From Eledone cirrhosa (Eukaryota), in the NCBI GenBank assembly GCA_964016885.1, contig OZ024759.1, positions 8,370,001 through 8,434,000 on the forward strand: a stretch of 64,000 bases of DNA, read 5' to 3'. Each line of letters begins with the position of its first letter. Position 1 is the first letter of the stretch. Both the position numbers and the translations under genes were made by a program. Shown here piece after piece: positions 17,217-45,012 of this stretch. Below the pieces are notes generated by a model that saw nothing but the letters and a program-made list of their open reading frames with translations, had not been told where the DNA came from and ran no database searches.

Positions 17217-17730
17217 AATTGCTTGCATATTACACTCCTTGGAGTGCAGCTTTCCGATTGCCAGAAACCAATCGAAGATATTTCTATCATATCTATCGAT
17301 CAGGTCCAGGTATTTAACCGGTTTGTATTTTCGTTGTTGTGGTAAGGTGGCAACATGTCTCAGGTCGCAATTATCCCTGCCTCACACTTTCATCATATTG
17401 TTATTACTCTGAGCTATCATTTATCGATTTATCGATATCATCTCATTGAGTGCTTTGTGCCACCCTCAGAAGATTGATTTCGAAAACTGCTAATGGCAGC
17501 TGCAACCGCGTATATATATACATATATATATATATGTAAGAATATTTTCGAAACAGCGAGTGGGTTTGAAATTATTAGAAATGTAAGCTATCGCCGTATT
17601 TTGACTAAAGAAATTAAAGAAATTATTTAGCCTGATAGTGGGGTTAAGAACCCTCGGAGAAATGGAAAAAGATGAGTATTGACATACATGTATGTCAATA
17701 TATATATATATATATATATATATATATATA

Positions 17731-17938
17731 TAGGAACAAGTAAGACCCCGACGGCTGAGCTCAAGCCGTTTCGACGGCTAATTCTGGACGGCTAATTCTG
17801 TCCAGAATTAGTTGTCGAAACGGCTTGAGCTCAGCCGTCGGGGTCTTATTTGTTCCTATTACCCACTCTACTACCCTAAGTATTGAGTACTTTGGTGCGT
17901 TATGATCCACCTGGTTCCTTACCACATTTCCTTCGTTA
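17731..17938 (+). mobile_element. Fold-back short element in (TA)n with hammerhead 3' half (PLE-terminal-repeat-like)
   Basis: Palindrome 17731-17858; GAAACGGCT-tgagctc-AGCCGTC stem III; GAGTACTT at 17885. Sister copies at 34337-34523 and 39570-39626 (minus). Confidence 0.8.
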
Positions 17939-18060
17939 TATATATATATATATATATATATATATATATATATATACAGACACACACACACACATATATA
18001 TATATATATATATATATATATATATATATATATATATATATATATATATATATATATATA

Positions 18061-18350
18061 TACCTTAACGGTTCAAGTTTTTCTTGAAAAACTTGAACCG
18101 TTGAGGTATCTTTTCTTAGTTATGTAAAAAATTTATAAAACAAACTTTGTATTTTATCTGATGAAAGCGTACCAAGGTTTTGGTACCCTTGAAATATATA
18201 TAATAGAATAAAAATGGTTTTATAAATATAGTTTCCATTTATTTAATATCATTGAATATTATACTCCAGAAAACTTGTCGAGTGCTCTGAATCAGTTATA
18301 AACATTTATATTTGTTGAATTACCAACAAATTAAATATCCCTTTTGCTTA
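18061..18350 (+). mobile_element. Short hammerhead-bearing element in (TA)n with a 48-bp 5' palindrome
   Basis: Palindrome 18061-18108, hammerhead 18150-18210, GAGTGCTC at 18280. Relatives at 30355, 35338, 39102 and 44550. Confidence 0.85.
18150..18210 (+). ncRNA. Minimal type I hammerhead ribozyme
   Basis: TATTTTAT CTGATGA aagcgtacc-aaggtttt-ggtaccctt GAAA tatata TA ATAGAATA; stems I and II pair and stem III is palindromic. Confidence 0.85.
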
Positions 18351-18971
18351 TATATATATATATATATATATATATATATACATATATATATATATATATA
18401 TATATATACATATATATATATATACATATATATATATATATATACATATATATATATATACATATATATATATATATATATATACTTATATATATATATA
18501 CATATATATATATATATATATATATATATATATATATATATATATACTTATATATATATATACATATATATATATATATATATATATATATATATATATA
18601 TATACATATATATATATATATATATATACATATATATATATACATATATATACATATATATACATATATATATATATATACATATATATACATATATATA
18701 CATATATATATATATATATATATATACATATATATATACATATATATATATATATATATATATATATATGTATATATATATATATATATATACATATATA
18801 TATATATAGATATATATATATATATACATATATATATATATATATATATACATATATATATATATATATATATATATATACATATATATACATATATATA
18901 TATATATATATATATATATATATATATATATATATATATATATATATATATATATATATATATATATATAC

Positions 18972-19340
18972 TATAATGATAAAGAACGAGGAATCAGTGT
19001 TGCATCATATCATATTTAATAATATATTACATATGTTTCTCTATCGATCAGCTCGAGGCAAGATCTATTATAGGTCGAACCTGATTGTGTACTCGAAAGT
19101 TCTTCATACACCAAACATATCTGACGAACTTTCGATTACAGAGTCAGGTTCGACCTATAATAGACCTTTCCTCTAGCTGATCGATAGTGAAACATATGTA
19201 ATATGTTATTAAATATGATATGATGCAACACTGAATCCTCGTTCTTTATCATTATGATATTATACTCTGCTCTGTGCCAGCATCGAGTGCTCAACCGGCA
19301 TACCGCCTACGGACGCAATTATCTTGCAGCCTAACAACTA
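18972..19340 (+). mobile_element. Fold-back hammerhead element in (TA)n
   Basis: Imperfect ~135-bp inverted arms 18974-19255; GAGTGCTC at 19285. Confidence 0.85.
19114..19207 (+). ncRNA. Type I hammerhead ribozyme with extended stem II
   Basis: AACATAT CTGACGA actttcgat...atcgatagt GAAAC atat GTA ATATGTT; perfect 7-bp stem I and GUA cleavage triplet. Confidence 0.9.
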
Positions 19341-19409
19341 TATATATATATATATATATATATATATATATATATATATATATATATATATATATATATA
19401 TATATATAT

Positions 19410-19722
19410 ATTAATAGAATATTAAATTCTAAGTGTTAATTGAACAAGTACTTTCATGCTTTCGCAATCTTCAGGTTCATAATATGTGGTGACAGTCAAG
19501 TTTGCAACAAACTTGACTGTCACCACATATTATGAACCTGAAGATTGCGAAAGCATGAAAGTACTTGTTCAATTAACACTTAGAATTTAATATTCTATCA
19601 TACTATTTCATTATAATACCATTATAAATTTTAAAGGATTGTAAATAAAACGAGTAAATCAGACAAAGTTGGAATTCCTCTTATTAATATAATCTTCTAT
19701 ACACAATCATACACACCCGTGT
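19410..19722 (+). mobile_element. Fold-back hammerhead element in (TA)n
   Basis: Near-perfect ~90-bp inverted arms 19414-19598 with a 3-nt loop at ~19506. Confidence 0.85.
19533..19571 (+). ncRNA. Very small type I hammerhead (mirror copy on minus strand ~19441-19479)
   Basis: TGAAC CTGAAGA t TGC-gaaa-GCA t GAAA gtac TT GTTCA; GNRA-capped stem II. Confidence 0.82.
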
Positions 19723-19802
19723 ATATCTACCTATCTATATATATATATATATATATATATATATATATATATATATATATATATATATATATATATATAT
19801 AT

Positions 19803-42038: not shown

Positions 42039-42174
42039 AAATAAAGGATTATGAGTTCATGCAATTGACTTATGTTTCGTCACTATATATATATATATAT
42101 ATATATATATATATATATATATATATATAGAGAGAGAGAGAGAGAGAGAGAGAGAGGGGGGGGAGAGAGAGAGC

Positions 42175-42488
42175 GAATAATGAAATACAAAGTAGTTTCA
42201 GATGTTAAAGTCCTTTATTGATAAGACTGTGATACATATTTCAATGACGTCAGTGACCACACGATTCCGCGTCCCAGTGTCATGATCTCATCAGACTGCT
42301 TATTACATAATAAGGCTACGTTCCCGAGGCAATCCAATTTGGCACTGGGACGCAGAATCACGTGACCGCTGACGTCATCGAAATATGTATCACGGCCTTA
42401 TTTCATTATTCTAAACATACTCCGCCATTACTATTGGAAAAACAACGTTGAGTGCTTCAATGGTATTACATGAATATTTACCATGAGT
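42175..42488. mobile_element. Diverged fold-back element; hammerhead core on minus strand (42288-42294)
   Basis: Imperfect arms 42220-42279 and 42343-42401; GAAA tatgta TC; GAGTGCTT at 42450. Confidence 0.72.
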
Positions 42489-43319
42489 ATATATATATAT
42501 ATATATATATATATATATATATATGTTTGTGTGTGTGTGTGTGTGTATGGTGTATGTATATATGTGTGTGTGGTGTATGTATATATATGTGTGTGTGGTG
42601 TGTGGTGTATGCATGTGTGTGTGTGGTGTGTAGTGTATGTATGTGTGTGTGGTGTATGTATATATATGTGTGTGTGCTGTGTGCTGTGTGTATATATGTG
42701 TGTGTGGTGTATGTATATGTGTGTGTGGTGTATGTATATATATGTGTGTGTGCTGTGTGCTGTGTGTATATATGTGTGTGTGTGTGTGTGGTGTATGTAT
42801 ATGTGTGTGTGGTGTATGTATGTATATATATGTGTGTGTGGTGTGTGGTGTGTGTGTGCTGTGTGTATGTGTGTGTGTGTGTATGGTGTATGTATATATG
42901 TGTGTGTGGTGTATGTATATATATGTGTGTGTGGTGTGTGGTGTATGTATGTGTGTGTGTGGTGTGTAGTGTATGTATGTGTGTGTGGTGTATGTATATA
43001 TATGTGTGTGTGCTGGTGTATATGTGTGTGTGTGTGTGTGGTGTATGTATATATGTGTGTGTGGTGTATGTATGTATATATATGTGTGTGTGGTGTGTGG
43101 TGTATGTATGTGTGTGTGTGGTGTGTAGTGTATGTATGTATGTGTGTGTGGTGTATGTATATATATGTGTGTGTGGTGTGTGTGTGCTGTGTGTATGTGT
43201 GTGGTGTGTGTATGTATATATATATATGTGTATGTATGTGTATGTATGTGTGTGTGTGTATGTATATATATGTGTTGTTTATTATCTAATTAAATAATAT
43301 ATATATATATATATATAGA

Positions 43320-43635
43320 AGAAACAACTAACTAGTAACATATAAATAAACAAATAAATAAACAAATAAAAACACACACAGATACCCGGATGTAGCACCT
43401 GCGCAAACTAAGCACACAACACACAGAAAAACAAGATGGCGTAGGACAGAACTAAGGAGAGGCACAAAACAAAGAAAAGAATCCCAGGTCACTGAAGATG
43501 TCAGAGAATGTGTGACGAAAGAACTTTGACAATATATGAACAACCAACCAACCGGAAATTTATAATAAATTGAAGTGAAAGCAACTGGTGCGTGTGTTTC
43601 TTATTGGCAACATGACCCTCCCAAAATATAACAAT
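43320..43635 (+). mobile_element. TGACCCTCCC-terminus element with hammerhead at 43488-43530 and upstream ACAAGATGGCG
   Basis: GTCA CTGAAGA t GTCA-gagaatgtg-TGAC GAAA gaac TT TGAC. Confidence 0.75.
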
Positions 43636-43913
43636 ATATATATATATATATATATATATATATATATATATATATATATATATATATATATATATTTAAT
43701 ACAATAACAGAGATAGTTTAAAGCTAAACTCTGACTGGTAACCATCTCACTCAACAAACATTAGGTTATATTAAAATATAAACCCAATTTAAGTGTTTGG
43801 GGTGCTAACAATATGTATAATGTGGAAAAACCCGTTGTATTATTTTATGAGATATAATTAAAGTTAAAGTATATCTATATATATATATATATATATATAT
43901 ATATATGAAATTG

Positions 43914-43980
43914 CCTTGTCTGACGAACGAATGCGGACGTTTCTTGTATCCGTCTTATTCGGGAAACCTCTGGTAATGAG
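43914..43980 (+). ncRNA. Type I hammerhead ribozyme
   Basis: CCTTGT CTGACGA acgaatgcggac...atccgtcttattcgg GAAACC tct GGTA ATGAG; GAGCACTC at 44037. Confidence 0.8.
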
Positions 43981-44549
43981 TTAATTATATTGTATTGTTT
44001 ATTATACATTAAATATTTAGCTCTGTAACTTACATAGAGCACTCTTCATTCCTCTCGCTTCTTCAACGGAAACTTCAAGACTTATATATATATATATATA
44101 TATATATATATATATATATATATATATATATATACTTTTATATATACTTTTATATATATATACTTTTGATTATTTATGCCCTTGAGAAGCTCAACTGGGC
44201 GAAACGTACGTAGGTGCTGTTTTAAATAAACATGTTTTAACGGTCTATTCTCCGATTTTTTACTTTCCCACGTATATATATATATATATATATATATATA
44301 TATTTATTAAATAACAAATTAATATTAATATATATATATATATATATATATATATATATATATATATATATATATATATATGATAATAATGGAGCTGCGG
44401 CGCTGCAAATGGGTTACATATGAAAAAGTTTGTCCTCATCAGTGGCCATCCAACCGTCGTAGGCATTTCGTCGCATTAAAGGCCATATACCTCAGGTTGG
44501 TGCGTTCAACGGCTAAAAAAAAGTCGTTGGGATATATATATATATATTT

Positions 44550-45012
44550 ATGTAAAGTTATATTTAAAATTGTTGGGTTACAACTAGTAAATATTTATAA
44601 CTGATATAAAAGCACTCGACAAATATTTGGAGTATATTTACAATATTAAATAAATGGAAAACTATATTTATAAAACCATATCTATTTCATTATATATATT
44701 TCGGGGATATCATATTAACAATATGCTATGCCTTCATCAGACAAAATACAATATAAACAGTTTTATAGATAAATATATTCGACATACCGTAATAAACATC
44801 AACTTCATTTGAAGAGGTTTACTGCTAGAGTAAACCTCTTCAAATGAAGTTGATGTTTATTACGGTATGTCGAATATATTTATCTATAAAACTGTTTATA
44901 TTGTATTTTGTCTGATGAAGGCATAGCATATTGTTAATATGATATCCCCGAAATATATATAATGAAATAGATATGGTTTTATAAATATAGTTTTCCATTT
45001 ATTTAATATTGT
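44550..45012 (-). mobile_element. Fold-back element, ~185-bp arms, mirrored hammerheads (minus core 44734-44740; plus core 44912-44918)
   Basis: Palindrome 44639-45013 with a 5-nt loop at ~44826; AAGCACTC at 44610. Confidence 0.88.

Follow-up and report, generated by a model that had tools for sequence, protein, structure and literature searches.

Hairpins carried twice by Hydra-type Penelope-like elements of Eledone cirrhosa lie just 3' of both insertion ends and are probable recognition elements

The question raised by this stretch of Eledone cirrhosa DNA is why one short motif, GAGNNCTY, recurs near the ends of repeats that adjoin (TA)n tracts. The stretch analysed (the window) comprises 64 kb of a 3.0 Gb genome and is rich in microsatellites. 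Its region from 17 to 45 kb is crowded with short repeat fragments, often inverted and separated by (TA)n tracts, and also harbours one long Penelope-like element (20.8-24.3 kb) and, at about 24.9-26.4 kb, another that is Neptune-like. The motif is probably the 3' strand of a bulged hairpin which Penelope-like elements of the Hydra type carry twice (H1 and H2); insertions end just 5' of either copy, and each copy is likely a protein binding site that positions one start of target-primed reverse transcription.

In the initial annotation, 20 sites were listed as a conserved cis signal at a similar distance from (TA)n. All were present, together with GAGCCCTC at 24268, and site 41521 was corrected to 41520. 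GAGTGCTY matched 17 times in the window (6 forward, 11 reverse), always within 17448-44610. Grouped by our own reading, the 21 sites represent about 11 families, with a nearly fixed distance to (TA)n in each. The distance of 35-70 nucleotides (nt) from the element end stood as a near-constant offset, but not in its limits, since the measured range from motif to (TA)n was 30-75 nt. The sites at 39615 and 24268 adjoin other repeats, not (TA)n, from which they are 103 and 166 nt away.

The position of the motif is not random. After removal of low-complexity or short flanks, GAGYRCTY was found 25-75 nt 5' of the junction at 17/95 (TA)n junctions in the window and at 29/484 in a first held-out set of 60 evenly spaced 10 kb stretches elsewhere in the genome (600 kb); among control junctions of the held-out comparison it occurred at 1/166 CA/TG and 1/64 GA/CT junctions. 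These are counts of copies, and members of one family are not independent. Held-out motif density at 30-79 nt from (TA)n (29 in 24,200 positions; 0 at 0-29 nt) was about 7.5-fold higher than at 80-289 nt (12 in 75,396 positions). Positional enrichment, whose absence genome-wide had been named as fatal to the signal, was thus seen in the held-out stretches. The other objection, that the ends might be recent homologues with a motif no better conserved than its flanks, does not hold: the homologues are old and the motif is far more conserved. A conserved cis signal was upheld insofar as it lies at ends of Penelope-like elements, is tied to insertion end points and is far better conserved than its surroundings (flank information at most 0.6 bits upstream and at most 0.24 bits from +9 on).

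At many element ends, a hammerhead core lies 55-110 nt upstream of the motif on the same strand. Since this fixes the element sense, three sites (38904, 40468 and 44037) had been read backwards; their strand is opposite to that first given, and in element sense they read GAGCACTC. A custom core descriptor located 28 putative hammerhead cores over 17000-46000, of which Rfam reported none.

In element sense, GAGY forms the 3' strand of a hairpin that consists of RCTC, a variable, covarying stem, a loop, a 2-nt bulge led by T/U, GAGY and an unpaired NCTN. ACTC stands upstream of GAGT and GCTC upstream of GAGC, the upper stem opens with a pyrimidine-purine pair, and the distance spanned from CTC to GAG is between 12 and 77 nt. 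The initial annotation had overlooked the upstream stem, the bulge and the second motif copy. For GAGNNCTY located 20-80 nt from (TA)n the stem was found in 14/24 cases in the window and in 26/44 and 42/79 cases in the first and a second held-out set of genome stretches, as compared with 1/33, 15/283 and 19/350 elsewhere. When the stem was searched for first, 81/100 hairpins near (TA)n (copy counts) continued with GCTT, ACTT, ACTC, ACCT or GCTC. The closing pair in this genome (n = 69 near (TA)n) was A-T in 43, G-C in 15, G-T in 3 and A-C in 0 cases. By eye, the NCTN tetramer had no consistent downstream pairing partner and no consistent pairing with hammerhead stem III. TATA/ATAT was present within 14 nt 5' of 28/60 hairpins of a compiled set, as compared with 9/60 and 7/59 control windows; several motif columns of this set are fixed by construction, and one H2 (locus L334) was anchored on a spacer ACTC, so the non-circular figures are those of the stem-first, hairpin-first and sequence-only-anchor searches. 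A six-copy GAGAACTC family near (TA)n is without the stem and was taken as a chance match.

The hairpin was likewise detected in other hosts. For this set, 60 of 120 listed relatives and one local open reading frame (ORF) were aligned, and 99 loci were taken from contigs of metagenomes and metagenome-assembled genomes, whose hosts are presumed to be animals. In the flanks, anchors were chosen by sequence only, without selection on pairing, and CTC stood 10-35 nt upstream in 52/57 non-redundant anchors. Watson-Crick pairs (n = 52) were found at the closing, first upper and second upper positions in 42, 46 and 35 cases (shuffle means 36.4, 26.5 and 14.6); 2, 0 and 0 of 10,000 shuffles equalled these values, relatedness being ignored. 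The first upper pair was C-G in 29 and T-A in 16 of 52 (Fisher 4e-8). T-A occurred as a third type of closing pair (3/52), and variant hairpins with TCTC/GAGA were found at loci L201, L212 and L262. A hairpin-first search gave a T-led bulge in 46/48 and YNCT afterwards in 36/48 cases (antisense 2 and 1 of 7).

Full elements carry the hairpin twice, 54-71 nt apart, between hammerhead and start codon; from 5' to 3', the hammerhead is followed by the short end, H1, the spacer, the long end, H2 and the ATG. An insertion terminates 2-12 nt before either H1 (short) or H2 (long), with an AT-rich stretch, often TATA/ATAT, at each end point, and H2 lies about 18-60 nt before the ATG. In 1.36 Mb of genome sequence plus the window, 241 copy ends of 13 families abutted (TA)n; 112 were short, 119 long and 10 other (231/241 short or long), the number of long ends being biased because they define the families. 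Families were clustered with the motif masked and carry numbers that are labels of this analysis; 13 of 20 multi-copy clusters served as end rulers, leaving 7 clusters and 49 singletons aside. Short ends lay at -15 to +1 from the first hairpin base (92/112 at -10 to -6), and the tail measured 64-127 nt. Since H1 and H2 bound the two ends, the motif-to-(TA)n distance of the initial annotation is the H1-H2 spacer.

In the family of the ORF found in the window, tandem copies continue beyond the long end and reach a second hairpin located 18 nt upstream of the ATG. Its long ends lie 2-5 nt before H2 in 22/22 cases and its short ends 2-10 nt before H1 in 14; 11 further ends were left unclassed by the script, 10 of which are short ends with the (TA)n shifted by realignment to an internal TA stretch. 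For three more families (0, 2 and 6), a second hairpin was predicted beyond the long end and then found at a fixed offset, with ACTC/GAGT in H1 and GCTC/GAGC in H2. GCTC just past the long end gave 404, 93 and 245 pattern matches in these families (some double-counted) and 0 in the reversed control. At their fetched loci, the H2 motif was present in 33/36 and an ORF matching the Hydra profile, from the first position on, in 34/36 cases, three locus pairs being the same place. Among 33 5' flanks of other hosts, 16 contained two copies 54-71 nt apart, 5 one and 12 none (shuffles 0.05). Same-contig comparisons by eye showed long ends at L199, L203, L204, L208 and L269 and short ends at L190, L193, L197 and L201. 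At L269, the 5' boundary is the first base of H1 directly after (TA)n, and the tail stands at the 5' end.

The two end classes are combined in inverted insertions. After removal of 4 cross-family pairs, the 47 same-family head-to-head pairs comprised 44 long+short, 1 long+long, 2 other+short and 0 short+short; the lone long+long pair reuses the end of a nearer short-long pair. Independent choice of starts would give about half mixed pairs, unlike the 44/45 seen (p 2.6e-12 against an expected 0.5). For the window ORF family, the pairs as computed were 5 long+short, 5 long+other and 1 long+long. By eye, head-to-head inversion centres often lie in or just 5' of hammerhead stems (window 17770-17800, 18085, 19100-19140, 34455-34480, 39310, 41230 and 41710), and the first half of the core is therefore lost in many copies.

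The families had been described as unrelated. Those that could be traced into ORFs (0, 2, 3 and 6) are all Hydra-type and encode proteins 39-58% identical to one another, while their leaders align in short patches or not at all, one leader being only partly present. The window ORF (21918-23611) possesses reverse transcriptase (RT) motifs, a CxCx5C linker, YIGLT and CxLCxxE..N..CxH, and has the marks given for the Hydra clade in PMC8557442. A single ORF with RT and GIY-YIG is supported by the RT motifs, the YIGLT domain and 468 relatives at E<=1e-30. Pfam matches were weak (GIY-YIG E 0.006 in 1/4 proteins), and the Pfam scan gave no name for the Penelope-like pieces of the window. Among 61 aligned relatives, CxCx5C, CxxC and CxH were present in 59, 61 and 60 (assigned in the order in which the clade features are listed), RW[KR] in 45, DK[TS] in 58 and DKG in 3. 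The RW motif occurs in families 0, 2 and 6 and DKT in family 6; the region is truncated in the window copy. A CCHH endonuclease motif was not seen on reading the translations by eye. The (TA)n target of the clade was found as well, and the tandem or inverted terminal repeats and optional tail of endonuclease-positive Penelope-like elements correspond to run-on tandem junctions, inverted pairs and two end classes. By eye, the hammerhead region of L200 matches Penelope-1_NV, and that of L263 is close to Hydra-1_Amil.

These elements are abundant. The window ORF gave 4,399 first-look candidates in the genome, many copies being 87-93% identical, and one endonuclease query gave 55,474. No relatives were found by a single-protein scan of metagenome contigs or an alignment scan of viral contigs. 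Copies of family 0 are arrayed in tandem at intervals of about 3.5 kb (C1:91476605-91487271 and C1:437200339-437210965); at four loci from the first array the frame is open across the 1.4 kb read, which suggests that this family was recently active. In the window ORF family, the hammerhead core reads CAGAAGA instead of CUGANGA in every printed copy (24154-24177, +; 20832, -; 19957, +), which amounts to a fixed alteration of the catalytic core in a very abundant family.

The copies detected in the window are the following (coordinates, strand, description).
17406..17455 (+): hairpin ACTC..TT GAGTGCTT, family single-copy in the sample, no ORF link; the only case whose predicted fold is the proposed one
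17733..17936 (.): inverted insertion of family 0, short left and long right; H1 17865-17892 (+); family traced to H2 and a Hydra-type ORF
18263..18287 (+): H1 of family 2; hammerhead core upstream at 18158
18971..19338 (.): inverted insertion of family 13, short/long; H1 19264-19292 (+)
19838..19887 (-): H1 of a family-3 variant, GCTC..TC GAGCGCGC; absent from the earlier list
20776..21917 (-): 3' untranslated region (UTR) of the ORF element, ending short just before H1; hammerhead core from 20832, variant CAGAAGA
21918..23611 (-): Hydra-type Penelope-like ORF (RT and C-terminal GIY-YIG), 5'-truncated, with frameshifts and stops; identified from translations
23720..24310 (+): inverted 5'-truncated 3' UTR copy; hammerhead at 24154; H1 24226-24275 with first base mutated; long end near 24309
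29629..29652 (-): H1 with mutated 5' strand, family 13-like
30352..30690 (.): inverted insertion of family 2, short/long; H1 30603-30626 (+); family traced to H2 and ORF
33048..33453 (.): inverted insertion of family 6, long/short; H1 33098-33126 (-); family traced to H2 and ORF
33537..33568 (-): H1 of family 5, 5' strand mutated
34338..34522 (.): inverted insertion of family 0, long/short; H1 34382-34409 (-)
35396..35419 (-): H1 of family 2; hammerhead core at 35523
38904..38928 (-): H1 of family 11, GCTC..TA GAGCACTC; hammerhead core at 39028
39102..39471 (.): inverted insertion of family 2, long/short; H1 39161-39184 (-)
39615..39622 (-): tail fragment of family 0, cut inside H1, 3' strand only
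40070..40133 (-): H1 of family 19, degenerate or doubtful; weak stem, uncertain assignment
40374..40510 (.): inverted insertion of family 4, short/long; H1 40451-40475 (+)
40529..40886 (.): inverted insertion of family 5, long/short; H1 40588-40617 (-)
40956..41040 (-): H1 of family 9 with long upper stem-loop; absent from the earlier list
41520..41553 (-): H1 of family 5; hammerhead core at 41645
42419..42457 (+): H1 of family 14
44020..44044 (+): H1 of family 11; hammerhead core at 43920
44610..44633 (-): H1 of family 2

Several other repeats were detected. A frequent SINE-like (short interspersed nuclear element) repeat lies in or beside Hydra copies (21075-21260, 24310-24435, 28335-28510, 35935-36900 and 37860-38000), accompanied by a 163-nt tandem repeat (36478-36879) and a 45-nt, 13-copy array (37269-37852). 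A broken retrotransposon of the type without long terminal repeats (4912-6973, +; RVT_1 E 1e-8, weak zf-RVT) is unrelated to the hairpin finding. Satellite arrays with units of 29, 14 and 82 nt occupy 1-2909, 11087-12730 and 61224-64000.

How widely is the hairpin distributed? Among the six Hydra consensi of Craig et al. 2021 (PMC8557442), Hydra-2_Amil (coral) and Hydra-2_Ajap (sea cucumber) have it at the 3' end, Hydra-1_Ajap has two copies at its 5' start, and the copy in Hydra-1_Crog (copepod) contains one mismatch; Hydra-1_Amil and Hydra-1_Obim end 30-45 nt past the hammerhead and show no hairpin there. At the other-host loci, the strict hairpin occurred 1.9 times per kb in sense 5' flanks and 0.56 times in sense 3' flanks, as compared with 0.06 in the sense ORF and 0.11 in antisense flanks. 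Six 9-mer hairpin forms matched once in the Naiad consensus file, twice in Chlamys (all internal) and four times at Hydra termini; line breaks in the files can hide matches. The Neptune-like element of the window (24867-26420, -, with stops and frameshifts; genome relatives 76-88% identical) served as a control, and its family showed 0 hairpins in 30,000 nt downstream of 20 loci, not all of which include true ends. Judged by these sequences, the hairpin is a cis element of one Penelope-like clade in several animal phyla. Of the Hydra-type loci, 22 (L264-L285) stem from bacterial genome bins of animal-associated samples and are most likely host DNA binned with bacteria.

From the conserved structure, its duplication and the end positions we infer protein binding, initiation, the use of one RNA and a dimer; this leans on data for the Poseidon protein of Anolis carolinensis, in which two internal reverse transcription starts bound the tail (Frangieh et al. 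2024, PMC11167929). A protein dimer would cut both strands of the (TA)n tract and load onto a single RNA at H1 and H2. Each nicked 3' end would pair with the UA-rich bases immediately 5' of one hairpin; two complementary DNAs (cDNAs) would be synthesised and joined head to head. A start at H1 would yield the short end, and with a start at H2, H1 and the spacer would be copied as the 'tail'. Our tentative proposal is a programmed twin priming, in which the duplicated RNA hairpin may dock two RT-endonuclease subunits on one RNA, each priming one (TA)n strand, and one rule would give tail, inversions and short/long asymmetry. Other clades may use duplicated elements of their own likewise. In the Poseidon start region, a GAAAG word is repeated about 34 nt apart in the figure letters (PMC11167929), which is a weak lead for duplicated elements elsewhere.

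Several observations weigh against protein-binding hairpins that position two starts. An ORF link exists for only 4 of about 11 window families, and the strict motif is missing in 12/33 other-host 5' flanks, some of which by eye carry GAGA variants or non-element sequence. The minimum-energy fold equals the proposed fold in 1/9 window hairpins, the lower stem is kept in 3/9, and the folding z is below -2 in 1/9. Because CTC/GAG is invariant, three of four lower pairs yield no covariation, and 12 G-U versus 8 A-C pairs do not tell RNA apart from cDNA or other single-stranded DNA. Moreover, the start site of Poseidon is the same for both target strands in vitro (PMC11167929).

The ratio of G-U to A-C pairs is also compatible with the main rival, according to which the hairpins would fold in single-stranded cDNA or element DNA and guide GIY-YIG trimming of a longer-than-unit intermediate beside H1 and H2. 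According to Craig et al., the tail arises when the endonuclease resolves the intermediate (PMC8557442), the tail of D. virilis is reported to be required for endonuclease recognition (PMC11167929), and the end points are AT-rich like the target. We nevertheless consider such trimming unlikely: the wide CTC-to-GAG span is ill-suited to a duplex site, Poseidon ends are reverse transcription starts in vitro (PMC11167929), and the 44/47 short+long pairs need an added rule. The same pairs bear on RNA processing, in which the transcript would be cleaved or terminated immediately 5' of either hairpin and reverse transcription would proceed from the resulting RNA 3' end; if two RNA species were used independently, about half of the pairs would be mixed, instead of 44/45. 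Processing would suit the near-fixed short distance of both end classes 5' of the hairpin and the predicted self-cleaving hammerhead already upstream. However, Poseidon initiates internally on unprocessed RNA (PMC11167929), and the Rfam scan of 17000-46000 (160 matches at E<=1, the 150 listed all below gathering score) returned microRNA-like noise from (TA)n and inverted repeats, but no ribozyme or relevant family. We regard processing as improbable.

Slightly less probable still is a role of the hairpins as translational or transcriptional elements of the 5' leader, with ends that merely follow adjoining AT-rich stretches. H2 is near the start codon in all four traced families, and the Penelope promoter lies within the terminal repeat (PMC8557442); yet the ends track both hairpins at 2-12 nt although the spacers share little or no alignable sequence, TATA/ATAT stands just upstream of fewer than half of the hairpins of the compiled set (28/60), and other AT-rich leader stretches are rarely used (10/241 ends). 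The version of the initial annotation, a palindromic 8-mer of unrelated families serving RNA dimerisation or as a symmetric DNA site, is largely refuted and very improbable. GAG..CTY is partly self-complementary, and hammerheads of these elements are reported to act as dimers (PMC4209133). Of the 60 non-redundant 8-mers, however, only 1 is perfectly palindromic, central mismatches occur in the commonest form, GAGCACTC, position 1 is fixed whereas position 8 is variable (C in only 46%), GAGY pairs and covaries with upstream RCTC, and the families are homologous.

Penelope-like elements are the closest retroelement relatives of telomerase. To our knowledge, their replication cycle is largely unexplained, and how the optional tail arises has been an unanswered question for about two decades. 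The duplicated hairpin just 3' of both end points is a probable recognition element for which exact mutations can be named. The pair links the tail to the asymmetry of inverted insertions, and the origin of the tail becomes directly testable. If twin priming is true, it would follow that the hairpin is portable, a 25-nt element fixing where a telomerase-related RT starts internally. It can also serve as a marker for annotating ends and starts of the Hydra clade, which is abundant in this genome.

The elements resemble the Hydra clade of Craig et al. 2021 (PMC8557442) in the short single ORF with C-terminal GIY-YIG, the CxCx5C linker, CxxC/CxH and DKT, and also in the hammerhead near the 3' end, the (TA)n target, the inverted 5'-truncated copies and the tail at one end. 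They differ in tail length, 64-127 nt here versus 30-40 there, and the available sections of that account describe no hairpin or duplicated motif, though its consensi carry the hairpin. Like Poseidon (PMC11167929), they have a hammerhead and an AT-rich target, and on our model they would also share two starts that bound the tail, the cutting and extension of both strands and a dimer, which is predicted for Poseidon. The Poseidon starts lie in an AC-rich stem-loop inside the ORF; the position of its binding motif is narrowed only to +20 to +172, the part available mentions no twin hairpin, and by eye the letters of its Fig. S1 contain no CTC..GAG hairpin. Rotifer Penelope (Arkhipova et al. 2013, PMC3846280) likewise has an optional tail, which follows the 3' end of a single repeat of the inverted pair (a one-end-only tail is noted in PMC8557442 as well), and it has palindromes at the inverted junction. 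There, self-priming on an antisense template is invoked, and the available text gives no cis element that marks the ends.

A search of the full-text literature (subscription papers and Repbase reports lying outside its scope) and of Rfam yielded no account of the hairpin or its duplication. It is a real cis element of a known retrotransposon clade and apparently undescribed. Its nearest parallels are found in stringent LINEs (long interspersed nuclear elements; L2/CR1, R2), whose own protein recognises 3' stem-loops near the start of reverse transcription, and in twin priming of L1, where two primers on one RNA lead to inversions. In LINEs the stem-loop lies 5' of the start and is copied, whereas the hairpin described here lies 3' of its own putative start and is duplicated, and the two arms of the inversion overlap in sequence.

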